The notes: generated by a model from the sequence alone, not told the origin. Shown: positions 1-7,411, numbered from the stretch's first letter. The stretch: DNA of 64,000 bases from Actinomycetes bacterium (GCA_021809805.1 JAJZKA010000001.1:15246-79245); one strand, 5' to 3'. Program-made: numbers and translations.

Positions 1-15
1 GCATCGGCGGCGCGT

Positions 16-2496
16 TCAGCCATCGGTGCCCTCCTCGCCATGGGGCGCGCTCGCCTCGATAGGCAAGGTGATGCGAAAACAGGTACCTGACGGGCTCGAG
101 GTGGCAACGATGCGGCCCTGGTGCGCGTCCACAATCGCCCCGGCGATCGACAGGCCGAGCCCGGTCCCTGCGCCCTTGGAGCCGTGGCGCCGCCCGGGCT
201 CAAAGGGCGCCCGGGCCACCGCGTCCGGCAGGCCGGTGCCGTCGTCGCAGACCGACACCGTGACCTCCTCGCGCGCGCTGGTGAGGGTGACGGCGACGGT
301 GGTGCCGGACGGGTTGTGGCGCATGGCGTTGTCCATCAAGTTCACGAAGACCTGCTCGAGGCGGTCGTGGTCGGCGAAGATCGCCGGGACGTCGCCCTCG
401 GCGGCGATCGTCACCCGCGCCGCGGACTCGGGGGCAAGACAGGCGCGCGCCGCGTCGAGGATCAAGCACAGGTCGCACCAGTCCCGCTGCAGGCGGAGCA
501 CCCCGGACTCGAGCGCCGAGAAGTCCAACAGGTGCTCGACGAGCCGGCCGAGGCGCGCCGACTCAGAGGCCATCCGGCTCAAGAAGCGCTCGACCGACTC
601 GCCGTCCCAGGCGATATCGGGCTGCAGCAGCGTCTCGGCGTAGCCCTGGATGGCGGTGAGCGGCGTGCGCAGCTCGTGGCTCAGCCGCGAGAGAAAGTCG
701 CGCTGGATGTGGCGCGAGCGCCGAAGCGCCTCGGCCTCTTGCTGGACGATGCCGATCTCCTCGCGCTCGAGCGCGAGGCGCAGGCAGTGCGCCGCGTCGC
801 CGAGCAAGGCGGTCGCCGTCTCTGGCACCTCCTCGCCTGAAAGGCGTGCCACGAGCGCTCCGGGACCCGCCGGGGCGGAAAAGCGCGTCGAAACCAGCAC
901 AAGGCCATGGCCGTCTTGGTCGTGCTCGAAGCTCACGTTCACCGAGCCGTCGCTCGCCGGCGCCTCGAGCGCGCCCGCGGCGAGGGCAACCACGCGCGAT
1001 GGCGCCGCGGTCAACGGCTTCTCGTGCTCGACGCTGGGCAGGCAGGTGGCGCTGCGCACGAGCACGCTGCCGTCGCGCTGCCCCGTGGCGAGCACGACCT
1101 CCTCGGCGCCGAGTCCTTGTTGAAGCGCCCGCAGCGCGATCGCCAGCCCCTCGGCGACAGGGATTGGACCGGCGAGGGTCTCGAGCACTTCGCGGATCGT
1201 CTCAAGGACGCGGTTGCGAGACGTCACCTCCCCAAAGAGCCGGTCGCGCTCGAGGGCGCTGGCCGCGTAGCCGGCATACAAGGTGACGAGGTCGAGCTCG
1301 TCGCGCCCGGGTCGGCCCGCCGTGGCGCGCAGCACCGTGATCGCTCCGCTTGGCCCGTCGGGGCCCATGATCGGCACCGCCCAGGAGCTCTCGACGCCGG
1401 CGGCCTTGGCGAGCCAGCCAAAGCGTGCCCAGCTCAAGCTCGAGCGCGCGTCCTCGTCGATCACCGGCTCGCCGCGCGCCGCGGCGAGTCCGGCGGGGCC
1501 GCCGGCGGGGCCGAGCTCGAGCTCGGCGAAGGCCTCGAGCACGGGAGGTGCAAGCCCCAAGGTGGCCGCGCAGCGCAGCGTGCCGCCGTCGAGGCGGTGG
1601 ATGGCGAGGCGCTCGTCGCCGAGCGCCGCGCCGAGCGCTGAGCAGATCAAGGTAAGGCTGGAGGAGCGGTCTGCGGTGGTCAGCTCGTCGACGAGGTGCT
1701 GGAGCCGGCTGAGCTGGTGGCGGGCGGTGCCGCTCACCGCGCGACCGCCCATCAGCGCGATCACGTCGTCGGGATAGACGCGCTCGGGGTCCACCTCGCC
1801 AACCCGGCGCCCGCCGCGCATGACGACGAGACGGTCCGGGATACGGAACATCTGGCCGAGGTCGTGGGAGATCATCAACACCGCCGTCCCCTCGGCGGCG
1901 AGGCTGCGGATGAGGCGCTCGACTTCGGCGGACTCCCCGAGGCCGAGCGCGGCCGTGGGCTCGTCGAGGACGAGGAGGCGAGGCCGGCCGCACACCGCCC
2001 GGGCGATGGCGAGCAGCTGGCGCTGGCCACCCGACAGCGCCCGCACGGGGGTGGTCGGATCCAATGCAACGTCCAACGCCTCGAGCATCACCCGGGCGCG
2101 CCGGTGCCGGCGCGAGTCAGAGCTCGACAAGAAGCCCGCCTCGCGCCCGAGCAACAGGTTCGAGGTGACGTCGAGGTTCTCGCAGAGCGCGAGATCCTGC
2201 CAGACCACAGTCACCCCAGCCCGGGCGGCGCCTGCCGGGTCGCCGGTGACTTCCACGCCGTCGATCCGGACGCGGCCCGCCACGGGCTGCAGGTCGCCGG
2301 CGATGCAGCGCACGAGCGTCGACTTGCCGGCGCCGTTCTCCCCGACGAGGCCGAGGATCTCGCCCGATTCGAGCTCGAGGGCCGCGCCATTCAAGACGGC
2401 GAGCGACCCAAAGCGGACCACCAGGCCGGAGACCTCGAGCAACGGCGCGCTCGCCATGGGCGCATCGGCGGTCTCGAGGGCAACCACAAGCCTCAT
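16..2496 (-). CDS. Soluble fusion protein: ABC-type ATPase domain + GAF-like region(s) + HisKA/HATPase_c histidine kinase
   Basis: Lower 827 codons of ORF 16..3432(-). ABC motifs: Walker A GENGAGKST, signature LSGGQRQ, Walker B LLVLDEPTAAL, H-loop ISHDL. A GAF-like segment follows (LAIHRLDGG...WAVPIMGPDGPSGAITVL). Kinase motifs: H-box SHELRTPLTAIQGY, N-box NLMDNAMRH, G1 DDGTGLP, G2 GTGLGLSI. No hydrophobic TM stretch. Start set at ATG 2496 (MRLVV); ATG 2457 (MASAPLLEV) is an alternative. The upstream 312 codons of the ORF are R/G/A-rich and run antisense through the DUF929-like gene. Confidence 0.8.
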   Translation of the reverse strand: MRLVVALETADAPMASAPLLEVSGLVVRFGSLAVLNGAALELESGEILGLVGENGAGKSTLVRCIAGDLQPVAGRVRIDGVEVTGDPAGAARAGVTVVWQDLALCENLDVTSNLLLGREAGFLSSSDSRRHRRARVMLEALDVALDPTTPVRALSGGQRQLLAIARAVCGRPRLLVLDEPTAALGLGESAEVERLIRSLAAEGTAVLMISHDLGQMFRIPDRLVVMRGGRRVGEVDPERVYPDDVIALMGGRAVSGTARHQLSRLQHLVDELTTADRSSSLTLICSALGAALGDERLAIHRLDGGTLRCAATLGLAPPVLEAFAELELGPAGGPAGLAAARGEPVIDEDARSSLSWARFGWLAKAAGVESSWAVPIMGPDGPSGAITVLRATAGRPGRDELDLVTLYAGYAASALERDRLFGEVTSRNRVLETIREVLETLAGPIPVAEGLAIALRALQQGLGAEEVVLATGQRDGSVLVRSATCLPSVEHEKPLTAAPSRVVALAAGALEAPASDGSVNVSFEHDQDGHGLVLVSTRFSAPAGPGALVARLSGEEVPETATALLGDAAHCLRLALEREEIGIVQQEAEALRRSRHIQRDFLSRLSHELRTPLTAIQGYAETLLQPDIAWDGESVERFLSRMASESARLGRLVEHLLDFSALESGVLRLQRDWCDLCLILDAARACLAPESAARVTIAAEGDVPAIFADHDRLEQVFVNLMDNAMRHNPSGTTVAVTLTSAREEVTVSVCDDGTGLPDAVARAPFEPGRRHGSKGAGTGLGLSIAGAIVDAHQGRIVATSSPSGTCFRITLPIEASAPHGEEGTDG

Positions 2497-2628
2497 TCTG
2501 ACCCGCCAGCCCGCCGCCCCGCGGGAGCGCTCACGTGCGATCGCCGGGCCGAATGTGACACAAGGCCCTGCGAAGGCGCCCGAGCGCTCGGCTATTGCTG
2601 AAGCGGGCGTGGCGGGAAGCGAGGTTCG

Positions 2629-3642
2629 ATGGCGTCGAATCGAAAGGCCCGCGGCGGCGCGCGCCGTCTCGGCGCGGCCAGAAGGCCTGCGACACGCCAG
2701 GGCGGGGAGGCCAAGGCGGCGGCGCTCCCAAGGCTGCGCCGCAGCCGGCAGGCGGGCTGGACGATGGTCGCCGCCGCCGTCGTCGTGGCGCTCGCCCTCG
2801 TATCGATCCACGTGCTCGAGGGCTCCACCAGCACCTCGAGCCCCATCGTCACCGGTGCCGACCGCAACCCGACGCTCGCGCCCCAAGCGGGGGTGCGGGC
2901 GCTCACGACGATCCCGGCCGCCGTCTACGACGAGGTCGGCACGAACGGGGAGCCGGCGCTGCTCGCCGTCACCGCCGGCCAGCCCCTGCTCCACAGCGCC
3001 CACAAGCCGCGCCTTGTCTATGAGGGGGCGGAGTACTGCCCCTATTGCGCGGCCGATCGCTACGCGATCATCGCCGCCCTGGCGCGCTTTGGACGCTTTT
3101 CTGGCCTGCGCGTCACCGCATCTGGCGCGAAGGACGGCGACATCGCCACCTTCAGCTTCCTCAACAGCTCCTATCAGAGCCGCTACGTCTCTTTCCGCCC
3201 CTATGAGGCCGCCGACCGCCTCGGCCAGCCGCTCCAGCACGTTCCAGCAGCGGTGGAGCGGCTGTTTTCGACCTACGCCGGCAACCCGGCGACGAACACC
3301 CCGTCGCGATTTGGCGCGGGTCGCTGGGCGGCGCCCGGCATCCCCTTCTTGGACCTCGCGAACCGCTACGTCGTCGCCGGGACCTCGAGCGCGCTCGCCG
3401 AGGTCGTCGGGAGCGGGGCGCTCGATGAGCACAACGCCAACCTCCTCGCCATCGCCGAGGCGATCCGCGCGCCGATGTCGGCATCGTCCCGAGCGCTCGG
3501 AGCGGCCAGCTTCGTCGCGGACGCCAATTACCTTTCGGCTGCGATCTGCAGCCTGGATGGCTCCCGGCCAGCGAGCGTGTGCCGCTCCTCAGGGGTGCGC
3601 ACCGCCGCCGCCGTGCTCGCCCGGGTGCGGCCGATCCGCTGA
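2629..3642 (+). CDS. DUF929-like thioredoxin-fold protein with N-terminal membrane anchor
   Basis: ATG at 2629 preceded by GGAAGCGAGG. Basic N-terminus followed by a TM helix (WTMVAAAVVVALALVSIHVL). Conserved YEGAEYCPYCAADRYAII and FGRFSGL blocks recall the DUF929 family. Confidence 0.7.
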   Translation: MASNRKARGGARRLGAARRPATRQGGEAKAAALPRLRRSRQAGWTMVAAAVVVALALVSIHVLEGSTSTSSPIVTGADRNPTLAPQAGVRALTTIPAAVYDEVGTNGEPALLAVTAGQPLLHSAHKPRLVYEGAEYCPYCAADRYAIIAALARFGRFSGLRVTASGAKDGDIATFSFLNSSYQSRYVSFRPYEAADRLGQPLQHVPAAVERLFSTYAGNPATNTPSRFGAGRWAAPGIPFLDLANRYVVAGTSSALAEVVGSGALDEHNANLLAIAEAIRAPMSASSRALGAASFVADANYLSAAICSLDGSRPASVCRSSGVRTAAAVLARVRPIR

Positions 3643-3999
3643 GCGCTGGCGCCGAGGCGCGCTCGGCCCGACCGGTCCCCCCTCAGCGCCGCGCGACAAC
3701 GAGCACACCGGCCGGGTCTTTGCACAACGGGGAGGATTGGACCGCACAGATCCCCGCGAGATGAGGTTTGCAAGACACCGAAGGCTCACGGGCCCCGGTC
3801 GAGTTGTGGTCCGCCGCCACCGCGACGATTCGCAGGTGCCGGCCAATTCGCGCACCGCGCTGCGCGAGGTGACGGACCAGGTCCGCAGAACTGCACGGCT
3901 CGCCAACTGATCACGTGCCGCGCGACTCCCCGATCCCCGGTGGCCCTCGGGAGCTGCCTTGTGCTCGTCGCGTGACGGGCGCTGAGAGTGCCGAACAGC

Positions 4000-5133
4000 T
4001 CAGGCCTCGGGGCTCTCCTCGCCGTCGCCGGTCTCACCCTCGCCACCGGTGAAGGTGCCGGTCTCGCCCGCGGGCGGGGGCACCGTCGGGGCCTCGCTCG
4101 GCACGAGGCGGTTGAGCTCGGCGATCAGCTGGCGGAGACGGCCGTGGTGCGCCCGGTCGAACTCGAGCGCGATGCGCGGCAGCTCGAGCTGGTCATCGCT
4201 CGCGCGCTCAGCCGCGAGCGGCTCGGTGCGCCAGATTCCTCGCGGCGAGCAGATATCGGCGAACTCCGCCGACAGCCGCGCCACGTCCTCCTCGCTCGGG
4301 GCATGGCGGAGCCGAATCACCATCCGGTCGCCCACAAAGCGGCGCGAGTGGTAGTTGCGGTGGAAGGCAAGGAGCTCCTCGATCGCCTCGCCGACGTCGT
4401 CGGTGATGCGATAAAGGTTGGTGTCGGCGGGGTCCGCCAGCTTGTGGCCGTAGACCTGCTCGACGACGAAGCGCTGCCATCCCCGCCAGTACTCGCCGCC
4501 GGCGACATCGACGAGGACGATCGGAGCGGGTTCGGCCTTGCCGGTCTGGACGAGCGTGAGGAGCTCAAAGGCTTCATCAAGGGTGCCAAAGCCGCCCGGG
4601 AGGCACGCAAAGCCGGTTGATTCCTTCATCAACATGAGCTTTCGCGTGAAGAAGTACTTCATGTCGACGAGCTTCTTGTTGCTCGCAATCCAGGCGTTCG
4701 GCTCGGTCTCAAAGGGCAGGCGGATGTTGACGCCGATCGCCATCTCGGGCCCCGCGCCCTCGTTGCCGGCGGCCATGATCCCTGGACCGGCGCCGGTGAC
4801 GACCATCCAGCCGGCATCGGCCATCTTGCGGGCAAGCTCGCGCGCCAGGCCATAGAGCTGGTCGGACGGCGCGGCTCGGGCGGAGCCGAAGATCGTGAGC
4901 TTGGGCACGTCGTGGTAGGGGGCGAACATCCGAAAGCCGTCGCCCATCTCGGCGAGCGCCGTGCCGACGATCTTTAAGTCGAGCCGGTCAGTCTCGTCGC
5001 CGGCGAGGCGCAGCGCCGAGAGCACCAGGCGACGGACGAGGTCGCGGTTCTTGCGCACGCCAAGCTCGTCGAGCAGCTCCTCGACGAGCGCGACAGTGTG
5101 GTCCTGCTCGGACGGCTCGAGCTCACTGGTCAT
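4000..5133 (-). CDS. LOG-family protein (nucleotide 5'-monophosphate nucleosidase / lysine-decarboxylase-like), long form
   Basis: Motifs VVTGAGPGIMAAGNEGA and CLPGGFGTLDEAFE (PGGxGTxxE). Has a C-terminal extension. ATG 5133 chosen; TTG 5166 would overlap the pgl stop. Confidence 0.8.
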   Translation of the reverse strand: MTSELEPSEQDHTVALVEELLDELGVRKNRDLVRRLVLSALRLAGDETDRLDLKIVGTALAEMGDGFRMFAPYHDVPKLTIFGSARAAPSDQLYGLARELARKMADAGWMVVTGAGPGIMAAGNEGAGPEMAIGVNIRLPFETEPNAWIASNKKLVDMKYFFTRKLMLMKESTGFACLPGGFGTLDEAFELLTLVQTGKAEPAPIVLVDVAGGEYWRGWQRFVVEQVYGHKLADPADTNLYRITDDVGEAIEELLAFHRNYHSRRFVGDRMVIRLRHAPSEEDVARLSAEFADICSPRGIWRTEPLAAERASDDQLELPRIALEFDRAHHGRLRQLIAELNRLVPSEAPTVPPPAGETGTFTGGEGETGDGEESPEA

Positions 5134-5162
5134 CGTCTGCTCATCGTGACACGCGGGCGCGC

Positions 5163-5873
5163 TCAATCGACGAGGGGCGAGAGGAGTGGCACCGTCGGCA
5201 GGGCACCGGCGGCGTCGCGGTCGACGAGCACGACGAGCCGCGGGGCAACGACGCGAGCAGCCGGCAGGTCAGCCCCCTCATGCAGGGCGACGAGGACGTC
5301 GTGCTTGGCGGCGCCAAATACGGTCATGACGACGAGGGCGGCGCGGGAGATCGCGTCGTAGGTCAAGGTGAGGCGCGGGTGGCGATTGTTGCCGGTCGGG
5401 TCCTCGTTGCGGGCTACGAGCGTGCCATTTGGGACCTCGAGCGCCGCCGAGTGGGGGAAGAGCGATGCCGTGTGGCCGTCGGGACCGAGGCCGAGCTGGA
5501 CGAGGTCGAAGGCACCGCCAGCCGCCGCGATCTCGGCGGCATAGGCCTCCGGGCCGGCCTCGCACGACATCAAGTGGAAACCGCCGAGGCGGGCGCGGGC
5601 ATCCCCGAGTCCCTCGGCGAGGGAACGGGCGTTGGAGTCGGGGTGGTCCGGCGGCACGCACCGCTCGTCGACGAGGAAGAAGTCGACCCCGGTCCAGTCG
5701 AATTCGGTGGCGGTCATGGCGTCCAGGCAGGCCCGCCCGGCGCTGCCGCCGGAGAAGGCGAGACGCAATGGTCGGGCGGCCTGGCGTCTGCGGGTGGCGT
5801 CGGCGAGTTCGGCGAAGGCGTCCGGCACATCCTCGACGAGAGTGAGTGGGGGCAGGCTCACGGGGTGCGCCAC
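5163..5873 (-). CDS. pgl: 6-phosphogluconolactonase
   Basis: Motifs LAFSGGS, FFLVDERCVPPDHPDSN and LGLGPDGHTASLFP. GTG start overlaps the zwf stop by 16 nt. Confidence 0.85.
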   Translation of the reverse strand: MAHPVSLPPLTLVEDVPDAFAELADATRRRQAARPLRLAFSGGSAGRACLDAMTATEFDWTGVDFFLVDERCVPPDHPDSNARSLAEGLGDARARLGGFHLMSCEAGPEAYAAEIAAAGGAFDLVQLGLGPDGHTASLFPHSAALEVPNGTLVARNEDPTGNNRHPRLTLTYDAISRAALVVMTVFGAAKHDVLVALHEGADLPAARVVAPRLVVLVDRDAAGALPTVPLLSPLVD

Positions 5874-7411
5874 TGACGGTTGGAGCTCTCGATGAGACGG
5901 TCGGCTTCGATCGGGCCCCAGGTCCCGACGGGGTAGCGGGCCAGGGGAGGCTCGCCTTCGGCGAAGGCGTCCTGGATCGGGGCGACGATGTGCCAGGCTT
6001 GCTCAACCTCATCGGTGCGGATGAACAGCATCGGGTCACCGGTCATCGCGTCGAGCAGCAGCCGCTCGTAGGCCTCGGCCGTCCCGCCGGGGAAGGCCTG
6101 GCTGTAAGAGAAGTCCATTGAGACCGTGCGCACCGTGAAGCTCGGCCCGGGCACCTTGGCGCCGAAGCAGAGGCTGATGCCCTCGTCGGGCTGGATCCGC
6201 AGCACGAGCGCGTCGGTCGACAGGTCGCGGGTCAGCTGGCCGGCGAAGGGGAGGTGCGGGGGACGCTGGAAGACCATGACCACCTGGGTCTCGCGGCGCA
6301 CCAGGCGCTTTCCGGTGCGCACGAAGATCGGCACGCCGGCCCAGCGCCAGTTGTCGACGGCGAGCTGCATCGCCACGTAGGTCTCGGTCAGTGAGGCGGG
6401 GTCGACGCCCTCCTCCTCGCGGTAGCCGGGAAGCTCGATCTCATTCGCCTTGCCGCGCACGTACTGGGCGCGCACGACGCGGTCCACCTCCTGGTCGGAC
6501 CCGGGGATCACGACCGAGCGCAGCACCTTCACCTTCTCGTCGCGGATGGAGTTGCCCTCCATCGTCGCCGGTGGCTCCATCAAGGTGAGCGCCAGGACCT
6601 GCATCACGTGGTTCTGCACAATGTCGCGCAGCGCGCCGGCATGCTCGTAGAAGTTGCCGCGGTGCTCGACCCCGAGCTCTTCGGCCACGGTCACCTGGAC
6701 GTGGTCGACATAGCGGCGGTTCCAGATCGGCTCGAAGATGGCATTCGCGAAGCGAAGTGCCAAGACGTTCTGGACGGTCTCTTTGCCCATGTAGTGGTCG
6801 ATGCGGAAGATCTGTTCCTCGTGGAAGCACTCGTGCAGCTCGCGGTCGAGTTGCCGGGCGCTGTCGAGGTCGATGCCGAAGGGCTTCTCGACGACGAGGC
6901 GCGCGAAGCTGCCGCCCGATCCGGGCTCGTTCGCCTTGAAGGCCGCGAGGCCCCTCGCGACCGTGCCGAACAGGTCGGGGTTGGTGGCGAGGTAGTAGAC
7001 GCGGTTGCCCGCCGTCCCGCAGGTCACGTCGACGTCGGCGAGCACCGATGCGAGCTGCTCAAAGGTCGCCGGGTCGCCGTAGTCACCGGCCACGTAGCGG
7101 AAGCGCCCGGCGAACTGGTCCCAGCGCGGGTTGTCCTCGGCGCCCTCGACGCCCCGGCACAGGTCCCTGAAGCCGTCGTCGCCCATGATCGAGCGCGCCA
7201 CACCGACGACGCTGAAGCCGTCGGGAAGGTGGCCGAGGCGCGCCTGGCGGGCGAGGGCCGGCAGGAGCTTGCGGGAGGCGAGGTCGCCCGAGGCGCCGAA
7301 GATCACGAGCGCCAGGGGATCGGGACGGCGCTGGGCGGCGCTCGGCATCTCGTCCGCCGCCCGGTCGAGGGCGTCTTTCAGCGCGTCGTCGAGCGGGGGA
7401 GCGAGGTTCAC
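5858..7411 (-). CDS. zwf: Glucose-6-phosphate 1-dehydrogenase
   Basis: Motifs IFGASGDLASRKLLPAL, EKPFG and RIDHYMGKE. The GTG start overlaps the gnd stop (GTGA). Confidence 0.95.
   Translation of the reverse strand: MNLAPPLDDALKDALDRAADEMPSAAQRRPDPLALVIFGASGDLASRKLLPALARQARLGHLPDGFSVVGVARSIMGDDGFRDLCRGVEGAEDNPRWDQFAGRFRYVAGDYGDPATFEQLASVLADVDVTCGTAGNRVYYLATNPDLFGTVARGLAAFKANEPGSGGSFARLVVEKPFGIDLDSARQLDRELHECFHEEQIFRIDHYMGKETVQNVLALRFANAIFEPIWNRRYVDHVQVTVAEELGVEHRGNFYEHAGALRDIVQNHVMQVLALTLMEPPATMEGNSIRDEKVKVLRSVVIPGSDQEVDRVVRAQYVRGKANEIELPGYREEEGVDPASLTETYVAMQLAVDNWRWAGVPIFVRTGKRLVRRETQVVMVFQRPPHLPFAGQLTRDLSTDALVLRIQPDEGISLCFGAKVPGPSFTVRTVSMDFSYSQAFPGGTAEAYERLLLDAMTGDPMLFIRTDEVEQAWHIVAPIQDAFAEGEPPLARYPVGTWGPIEADRLIESSNRQWRTP

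Follow-up and report, generated by a model that had tools for sequence, protein, structure and literature searches.

A soluble ABC-ATPase–GAF–histidine kinase fusion conserved beside a sugar importer in soil Actinomycetota

What could an ATP-binding cassette (ABC) ATPase domain report to a histidine kinase to which it is fused? The question is raised by a 64,000-nucleotide stretch of DNA from an Actinomycetes bacterium (GCA_021809805.1, JAJZKA010000001.1:15246-79245), hereafter termed the window, at the left edge of which one minus-strand gene encodes an ABC ATPase domain, a GAF-containing sensor part and a complete histidine kinase in a single chain. The initial annotation, made from the sequence alone, offered two mechanisms: dimerisation or ATP turnover of the ATPase domain could act as the input switch of a kinase, or the protein docks on a transporter encoded elsewhere and reports its flux. 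We regard this fusion kinase, widespread and hitherto uncharacterised, as a variant of two-component sensing coupled to a transporter. The evidence favours docking over stand-alone dimerisation, because dimerisation alone leaves unexplained the importer lineage of the ATPase domain, its constant linkage to an importer and the loss of the separate ATPase gene in one lineage. The docking proposal needs one correction: the transporter is encoded not elsewhere, but by the next three genes after the response regulator in the same operon.

A soluble kinase with an N-terminal ABC ATPase domain

The gene is a single open frame of 826 codons on the minus strand, running from an ATG at position 2496 to the stop codon at 16-18, as first annotated; the motif strings quoted at that time (GENGAGKST, LSGGQRQ, LLVLDEPTAAL, ISHDL and SHELRTPL) are all present in the translation. 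Two further starts are available, a GTG at 2487 giving 823 residues, the form found as NCBI MDA8286890.1, and an ATG at 2457 giving 813 residues. Length variants are present in the 90% cluster, and the choice among the three starts is uncertain. The gene and its parts, with positions in the window and the evidence for each, are listed below; AF2 denotes the AlphaFold2 model and DHp the dimerisation and histidine phosphotransfer domain.

16-2496, minus strand: complete gene for a soluble ABC-ATPase–GAF–histidine kinase of 826 residues (open reading frame, translation, Pfam, identical product on 8 contigs)
1732-2451, minus strand: ABC nucleotide-binding domain, residues 16-255 (PF00005, NCBIfam, AF2, tree)
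1663-1731, minus strand: linker helix from the ATPase domain to the GAF domain, residues 256-278 (AF2 helix 258-275 at low confidence, conserved columns)
1237-1662, minus strand: GAF domain with a long C-terminal helix, residues 279-420 (PF13185, invariant columns, AF2 alpha/beta fold with a local confidence of about 90)
817-1236, minus strand: connecting helix and second, poorly conserved GAF-like alpha/beta module, residues 421-560 (AF2, Foldseek)
502-816, minus strand: signalling helix and DHp (HisKA) domain, residues 561-665 (PF00512, AF2 helices 561-624 and 632-663)
52-501, minus strand: HATPase_c catalytic domain with N, G1 and G2 boxes, residues 666-815 (PF02518, solved kinase cores)

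Pfam profile searches, judged against gathering scores, placed all four expected families in the same chain: ABC_tran (PF00005) at residues 35-182 (3e-33, 115.8 bits against a cut-off of 25), GAF_2 (PF13185) at 281-416 (1.3e-11, 45.3 bits against 28.6), HisKA (PF00512) at 598-665 (2.9e-19, 69.3 bits, exceeding its cut-off) and HATPase_c (PF02518) at 709-814 (2.1e-23, 83.3 bits, exceeding its cut-off). The order along the chain is ABC ATPase, helix, GAF, GAF-like module, HisKA and HATPase_c. The N-terminal domain is a PF00005 ABC ATPase with every motif in canonical order, namely Walker A (GENGAGKST, 52-60), the Q-loop (Q100), the signature (LSGGQ, 154-158), Walker B with the catalytic glutamate (D178-E179) and the H-loop (H211). 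At the other end, the DHp domain with its H-box histidine and the catalytic domain together make a HisKA-type (class I) histidine kinase, of which H607 (codon 676-678), within SHELRTPL, is the phospho-acceptor. The transmitter matches the solved kinase cores of KdpD (6lgq) and HK853 (2c2a/3dge), and among NCBIfam models its core scores best against those of the PhoR/PnpS/WalK type, below their cut-offs. An H-E-x-x-T motif in HisKA kinases points to phosphatase activity, and the HELRT of this protein suggests that it may be a phosphatase as well as a kinase. No transmembrane helix was detected along the kinase, in agreement with the first reading: the Kyte-Doolittle 19-residue mean reaches a maximum of 1.59, in a stretch that falls in beta-strands of the ATPase domain in the AF2 model.

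The AF2 model, built on 94 homologues, has a mean predicted local distance difference test score (pLDDT) of 81.7 and a predicted template modelling score of 0.40, so that the folds of the domains are trustworthy, but their mutual arrangement is not. It comprises the ATPase domain (20-250, pLDDT about 90), a low-confidence helix (258-275), the GAF domain (279-397), a long helix (398-440), an alpha/beta module (447-553), a 60-residue helix leading into the DHp domain with H607, a second DHp helix and the catalytic domain. Of the GAF-like modules announced in the plural, one is recognised by Pfam; the second (about 447-553) has no Pfam match, is GAF-like by AF2 secondary structure and Foldseek, and lies in a region with many indels in the alignments. 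The GAF domain itself has conserved segments GGPxG (332-336) and SSW.VP (370-375), which may line a pocket. Foldseek comparison revealed that the ATPase-domain fold resembles LptB/FtsE (target TM-score 0.8-0.86) and MalK (0.54), that importer ATPases are matched by the N-terminal third of the chain, and that the top matches of the C-terminal 650 residues in the PDB are the full-length bacteriophytochromes 9eut and 8upk. In the model and these matches, the C-terminus of the ATPase domain runs on into a helical spine like that of the parallel-dimeric phytochrome kinases. No chain in the PDB spans both the ATPase and the sensor/kinase parts by Foldseek.

Conservation of the fusion

Calls for the identical kinase protein exist on 8 contigs, which belong to separate records of ENA, NCBI and JGI. 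A database search for orthologues of the same domain order, which the initial annotation had called for, returned more than 120 full-length homologues with 55-63% identity and the same Pfam set, and more than 240 full-length homologues are known overall, in two subfamilies. Furthermore, metagenome contigs were searched with the sensor part alone (residues 258-592), and the ATPase domain proved to be fused in frame, without a stop, at all 80 loci with enough upstream DNA. Conservation was assessed in alignments of 22 and 94 sequences. Across the 94 homologues, K58, Q100, the signature motif, D178, E179 and H211 of the ATPase domain are invariant, as are the H-box (H607-E608-L609-R610-T611-P612) and the linker residues R259, Q261, L262, L265 and L268.

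A profile-free scan of 1.84 billion cluster representatives with residues 258-592 gave 118 matches below 1e-30, about half of which are unrelated multi-GAF giants; among the distant full-length relatives at 35-45% identity, eight of eight carry ABC_tran. Two matches apparently have no ATPase domain. One, P0151, is a fragment; the other, P0167 (577 residues), consists of sensor and kinase, starts with MDSSAHHQLSRLHAL, and may be a genuinely unfused form or the product of a gene that was miscalled or split. Locus L012 led to the second large subfamily, whose members share about 45% identity with the window protein. Its kinases (P0301-P0419) have the signature LSRGQ, not LSGGQ, in at least 90% of members, and their Walker A, Walker B and H-loop remain canonical.

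The architecture is common in soil metagenomes, not rare. The named members all come from metagenome-assembled genomes of Actinomycetota (Acidimicrobiia, Solirubrobacterales, Streptosporangiaceae and Nocardioidaceae), and a genome-collection scan yielded nine full-length matches among those listed, all metagenome-assembled genomes, mixed with many generic ABC ATPases. Source annotations call the members "ATP-binding cassette domain-containing protein" or, wrongly, "XylG"; neither these annotations nor the NCBIfam matches hold a curated family name for the fusion. A literature search of limited coverage found no paper on an ABC-ATPase/histidine-kinase fusion, and no characterised member came to light in that search, the PDB or the source annotations, as had been supposed from the start.

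A sugar-importer operon behind the kinase

The window was first described as holding no permease or binding-protein gene adjacent to the kinase. This is true within the window only and wrong for the locus, because the 3' side of the kinase runs off the window's left edge. On longer contigs the kinase is followed, on the same strand, by genes for a response regulator, a binding protein, an ATPase and a permease. The first of these just enters the window.

1-23, minus strand: start of an OmpR-family response-regulator gene, first 23 nucleotides, beginning ATGGCTGAACGC (matches the 250-residue gene on L001-L006)

The cognate regulator was thus found where it had been predicted, to the left of the window. 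It has 250 residues with Response_reg and Trans_reg_C domains, and its gene overlaps the kinase stop by 8 nucleotides. The binding protein (Peripla_BP_4) is closest to XylF and ChvE, its nearest solved relative being Escherichia coli XylF (3m9w, 2e-39), with ChvE (3urm, 6e-24) also matched. The operon ATPase is a single-domain ABC ATPase of 290 residues. The permease (441 residues, BPD_transp_2, GguB/XylH-like) retains the conserved EAA coupling helix, GGNAEAARRAG. Because the binding protein resembles XylF and ChvE, though with scores under the cut-offs for equivalogs, the putative substrate is a xylose-like monosaccharide.

Synteny was counted across 89 loci from soil Actinomycetota, each gene only where the contig reaches it. 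The same strand and order downstream of the kinase are kept by the regulator at 69/69 loci, as befits a two-component pair, by the binding protein at 53/54, by the ATPase at 49/51 and by the permease at 47/48. Genes outside the five-gene module are not conserved. A search beside the module for conserved catabolic genes, as a clue to the substrate, returned none and only lineage synteny (ribBA downstream at 14/39 loci, an ECF-sigma-like open reading frame upstream at 18/61). At locus L095 (5500-11748) the kinase and regulator are followed by unrelated open reading frames of 251 and 1045 residues.

Origin of the ATPase domain

The ATPase domain of the kinase and the operon's own ATPase are 43% identical. 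The best NCBIfam matches of the kinase domain are the N-terminal halves of YtfR, AraG, XylG and RbsA; it falls outside these CUT2 equivalogs, scoring 137-172 bits against cut-offs of 689-850 with the N-terminal half only matched. In a neighbour-joining tree of ATPase domains, built without bootstrap, the kinase domains form one clade beside single-domain sugar-importer ATPases, apart from both halves of the tandem proteins. This single-domain group includes the operon ATPases and free-standing ones from Streptomyces, Neorhizobium and Labrys. By these comparisons the kinase domain derives from the CUT2 (xylose/ribose-type) single-domain importer lineage, without being a member of the named equivalogs. 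Recent duplication of the operon ATPase is not supported as its source, given an identity of only about 40-45%, like that to other single-domain ATPases, and a clade of its own beside that group in the tree.

Between the kinase domain and the operon ATPase, 61 positions are at least 90% conserved in both families and identical. Among them are the Q-loop and the first part of the helical subdomain (QDLAL.NLD..N..LG.E), the region of ABC importers in which the coupling helices of the permease dock. We also considered the Q-loop motif QDLALCxNLD as a specific co-adaptation of the two ATPases and rejected this idea, as unrelated single-domain ATPases share most of it.

A lineage without a separate ATPase gene

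Within the second subfamily, one lineage has the gene order kinase, regulator, binding protein and permease, with no separate ATPase gene. It is represented by loci L012, L168, L169, L171, L173, L174 and L175-L177, which hold seven distinct kinase sequences, come from short-read and long-read assemblies of several samples, and have kinases 78-95% identical to that of L012. The binding-protein and permease genes are separated by 5-14 nucleotides, or overlap in L169. Intact permeases of 337-420 residues occur in the loci of six of the seven kinases, the L012 permease being frameshifted, and the coupling helix is kept. The internal operator described below is absent from this lineage, whereas relatives at 63-66% identity (L172 and L170) keep the five-gene form and the operator.

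Pairwise comparison of six of these loci, at synonymous distances (dS) of 0.22-0.63, gave ratios of nonsynonymous to synonymous substitution (dN/dS) of 0.17-0.23 for the kinase ATPase domain, 0.19-0.44 for the permease and 0.20-0.42 for the binding protein. All four genes are under purifying selection. The Walker A sequence GKLT of L012, together with its frameshifted permease, was considered as a sign of decay and discarded, since the relatives have GGNGAGKST and intact permeases; these oddities are errors or peculiarities of that one contig.

Co-variation within the module

Seven components of the module were compared at 40 loci by a partial Mantel (mirror-tree) analysis with 1000 permutations. 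The permease co-varies with the binding protein (0.70, 0/1000 permutations) and with the operon ATPase (0.34, 0/1000). Among the kinase and regulator parts, it co-varies only with the kinase ATPase domain (0.21, a value reached by 11/1000 permutations), as against -0.16 for the kinase sensor and -0.25 for the kinase core. The kinase ATPase domain and the operon ATPase give -0.01. We give this analysis little weight as support, since the kinase core and the regulator, a known pair, escape it.

Regulatory DNA of the module

Between the regulator and binding-protein genes lies an array of direct repeats, (G)TT[ACT]A[CT], phased at about 11 nucleotides.

L001 13227-13406, left of the window; also at L089-L167 and L172: repeat array, candidate operator (repeats and a -10-like element)

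Each such intergenic region has on average 4.4 repeats, against 1.0 in shuffled sequence and 1.9 on the opposite strand; their spacings peak at 11-12, 20-21 and 31 nucleotides, and at least four sites are present in 54/61 loci. A TAnnnT -10-like element lies 3' of the array in the printed examples, and in the window's own organism the array reads GTTCAC-n5-GTTAAC ... GTTCAT-n6-GTTCAC ... TACCCT. Direct repeats of this pattern are expected for an activator of the OmpR/PhoB family. The region resembles an operator of the OmpR type with a promoter that serves the transporter genes, and the regulator would bind there. A 444-residue call for the binding protein would swallow the array; a better start is the ATG at L001 13407, which has a G-rich ribosome-binding site. 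No further operator copies are present within the window (1 match against 0.52 expected).

Upstream of the kinase gene, about 35/74 loci (for instance L089, L103 and L105) have GTGACA-n17-CACAAT-n6-ATG, which suggests a constitutive sigma-70-type promoter and a leaderless kinase mRNA. At window positions 2485-2500 only CAGAAT-n7-GTG, with its start at 2487, resembles this family promoter, and there is no -35 element. It would favour the 823-residue form, a choice that is tentative because the promoter fit is poor and the -35 element is missing.

A putative mechanism and its alternatives

These features enable us to propose a putative model, which we consider somewhat more probable than not: the kinase docks on the operon's permease, sugar-triggered closure of its ATPase domains drives signalling, and the regulator induces the transporter. 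As part of this whole explanation, and with the same modest preference, the protein would be a cytoplasmic, dimeric sensor histidine kinase. Initially, the two ATPase domains of the kinase dimer would dock on the coupling helices of the permease, like ordinary ATPase subunits. A sugar-loaded binding protein would then dock and bring about ATP-dependent closure of the kinase ATPase domains. The movement would pass through the linker helix to the GAF domain, the GAF-like module, the signalling helix and the DHp/catalytic core, shifting the balance between kinase and phosphatase; the GAF domain would either just relay the motion or add the input of a cytoplasmic metabolite. Afterwards, the phosphorylated regulator would bind the repeat array and turn on the transporter genes. 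Finally, and more speculatively, the induced ordinary ATPase might take over bulk transport and dilute the kinase-bearing complexes. The transporter would thereby serve as the receptor, with its motor domain joined covalently to the kinase. MalK-type ATPases have C-terminal regulatory domains suspended beneath the transporter in a comparable way. The sign of the signalling response cannot be predicted from sequence.

A more specific form of the proposal, which we advance tentatively and at somewhat less than even chances, is that the kinase itself is an ATPase subunit of the sugar importer, that closure of the motor during transport gates histidine phosphorylation, and that the kinase provides the sole motor in the ATPase-less lineage.

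Several observations weigh against docking. The transporter of most members comes with a complete ATPase of its own, and so needs no kinase to function. Adjacency alone is also expected of a kinase that merely regulates a transporter, and at L095 no transporter follows the kinase and regulator within 5.4 kb. The GAF domain, which is strongly conserved, could be the real ligand sensor. The Q-loop motif common to the two ATPases occurs throughout the single-domain clade and is not peculiar to them, and the Mantel signal is weak, coming from a method that gives -0.17 for the known pair of kinase core and regulator. As for the ATPase-less lineage, all its loci share wider synteny, so the loss of the ATPase counts as a single evolutionary event; about 5 kb upstream of them is a paralogous pair of sugar-importer permease and ATPase, from which an ATPase could be supplied in trans; and the subfamily to which they belong has the variant signature LSRGQ.

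Some of these points can be read in favour of a stand-alone cytoplasmic sensor, in which the ATPase domains would form an ATP/ADP dimerisation switch reporting energy state, or the GAF domain would bind a metabolite such as a sugar phosphate, and the transporter would be a regulatory target only. The complete ATPase of most loci, the L095 arrangement, a GAF domain with invariant loop motifs and stronger conservation than the second module, and an operator before the transporter genes, which gives a regulatory link without need of physical coupling, would all be accommodated. Yet such a sensor leaves unexplained the sugar-importer origin of the input domain with its invariant Q-loop segment facing the coupling helices, the near-absolute linkage to one importer type over 35-60% sequence divergence, the ATPase-less lineage in which binding protein and permease are under selection, and, more weakly, the co-variation of the permease with the kinase ATPase domain and not with the rest of the kinase. 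We therefore regard it as rather unlikely, at roughly one part in several.

Still less probable, in our estimation, is an obligate heterodimer, in which the kinase ATPase domain would pair 1:1 with the 290-residue operon ATPase on the permease, recreating the two-domain ATPase of CUT2 importers (RbsA, XylG), so that transport would proceed only with the kinase attached. Canonical CUT2 ATPases are indeed tandem proteins, of about 500 residues, whereas in this operon two single domains with 43% identity are encoded separately. However, both resemble the N-terminal half, with canonical motifs, and neither is like the divergent clade of C-terminal halves; kinase-free single-domain sugar-importer ATPases exist in cultured Streptomyces, Neorhizobium and Labrys; the partial correlation between the two domains is -0.01; the supposed partner is lost in the ATPase-less lineage; and a dimeric kinase bears two ATPase domains, which fits a homodimeric pair better. 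An artefact (chimeric assembly, two genes run together by a frameshift, or a pseudogene undergoing decay) deserves practically no credence; nothing in its favour was found, and the identical 826-residue product on 8 contigs from separate records, the in-frame fusion at 80/80 loci and the invariant R259, Q261, L262 and L265 rule out, at the level of sequence data, misassembly or frameshift at the ABC/GAF junction (about 1650-1750), with the more than 240 full-length homologues and a dN/dS of about 0.2 in the related ATPase-less lineage pointing the same way.

Relation to known systems

In the Bce-type modules (BceRS-BceAB of Bacillus subtilis), flux through an ABC transporter activates the cognate kinase (PMC9169098; bioRxiv 10.1101/2020.02.28.969956; PMC3023708). 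The present module is similar in that a two-component system is linked to an ABC transporter, transporter activity, not a sensor domain of the kinase, is the supposed input, and the regulator would induce the same transporter. In contrast, BceS is a membrane kinase with two transmembrane helices that contacts BceB in the membrane, whereas the window kinase is soluble and fused to an ATPase domain. Where the operon here encodes a binding-protein-dependent sugar importer, BceAB is a resistance pump of the exporter type that has no binding protein. Bce-type permeases (BceB) have a large extracellular domain. By its lack of a transmembrane helix and its BPD_transp_2 permease with a separate binding protein, the module lies outside the Bce type.

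In the Pst system, the state of an ABC importer is relayed via the ATPase PstB to a HisKA-type kinase at the cytoplasmic face (PMC9239213). Like PstSCAB-PhoU-PhoR, the module has an importer-linked kinase, the core of which scores best against PhoR/PnpS-type models, below cut-offs. Unlike that system, in which the adaptor PhoU is needed and PhoR is membrane-anchored with a PAS domain, it has no adaptor gene, and its ATPase domain is part of the kinase polypeptide. MalK is an importer ATPase whose C-terminal regulatory domain sequesters the activator MalT. Here too an importer-type ATPase domain has a C-terminal extension that would couple transport to gene control, and the proposed geometry is alike; but the small regulatory domain of MalK is replaced by a full GAF domain, a GAF-like module and a histidine-kinase transmitter with its own regulator.

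For the covalent joining of part of a transporter to a histidine kinase, the characterised precedent is CbrA and CrbS, which carry an SLC5 symporter domain (PMC7096432, PMC5715377). That part is the membrane translocation domain of a secondary transporter, whereas here it is a soluble ATP-hydrolysing ABC motor, so that the kinase would need a separate permease. The window kinase has no SSF or STAC match in Pfam and no transmembrane segment, which sets it apart from the CbrA/CrbS type. In ChvE-VirA and XylFII-LytS-YesN, a XylF/ChvE-type binding protein signals to a two-component system governing the genes for sugar uptake (review PMC8050422). The module likewise has a XylF/ChvE-like binding protein alongside a two-component system. 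There the kinase has an extracytoplasmic or membrane domain with which the binding protein makes contact; such a domain is absent here, so any signal from the binding protein must cross the membrane through the permease. The likeness to bacteriophytochromes is one of fold only: residues about 260-826 place paired GAF-type modules on a helical spine that leads into the DHp/catalytic core, as in 9eut and 8upk, but at about 20% identity, with an ABC ATPase at the N-terminus instead of a PAS/chromophore module, and with no PAS or PHY match in Pfam; bacteriophytochrome kinases have a PAS-GAF-PHY photosensory core with a site for bilin.

Other features of the window

The divergent DUF929-like neighbour that had been noted is a DUF929 gene at 2629-3642 on the plus strand. 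It neighbours the kinase only in the closest relatives (L007, 71% identical) and is therefore not part of the module. Beside the kinase lies a pentose-phosphate cluster, at 4000-7411 on the minus strand and onward to about 12500; its gene labels are taken from the same genes on L001. It begins with a LOG/Lysine_decarbox-like gene (4000-5166, minus strand), 6-phosphogluconolactonase (5163-5873) and glucose-6-phosphate dehydrogenase (5858-7411), and continues with 6PGD-like, PGI-like and transaldolase genes. The cluster has no conserved link to the kinase module in other lineages. Many long overlapping open reading frames run on both strands of window positions 1-6000, for example 1820-3910 (plus strand, 696 residues), and the kinase frame itself extends as a 1138-residue open reading frame to 3432; these are by-products of the 72% G+C content, not genes. 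A search for structured RNAs in the window returned none.

Significance

To our knowledge, communication from a transporter to a signalling protein is known only for a few cases (Bce, Pst/PhoU and MalK/MalT), in which the contacts are non-covalent and hard to dissect. In the present family, motor domain and kinase are one polypeptide, which, if docking is true, would provide a simple system for following how ATPase closure becomes a phosphorylation signal, and would show how a cell measures transport activity rather than concentration. Were the kinase in fact an ATPase subunit of the importer, it would be the first ABC motor domain to serve as the input of a two-component kinase, a covalently wired flux sensor. 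Small as it is, with four or five genes and a recognisable operator, the module lends itself to transfer and testing. Soil and peat Actinomycetota hold hundreds of members of the family, the named ones all uncultured, and it may thus be a major sugar-sensing route in these carbon-cycling bacteria.

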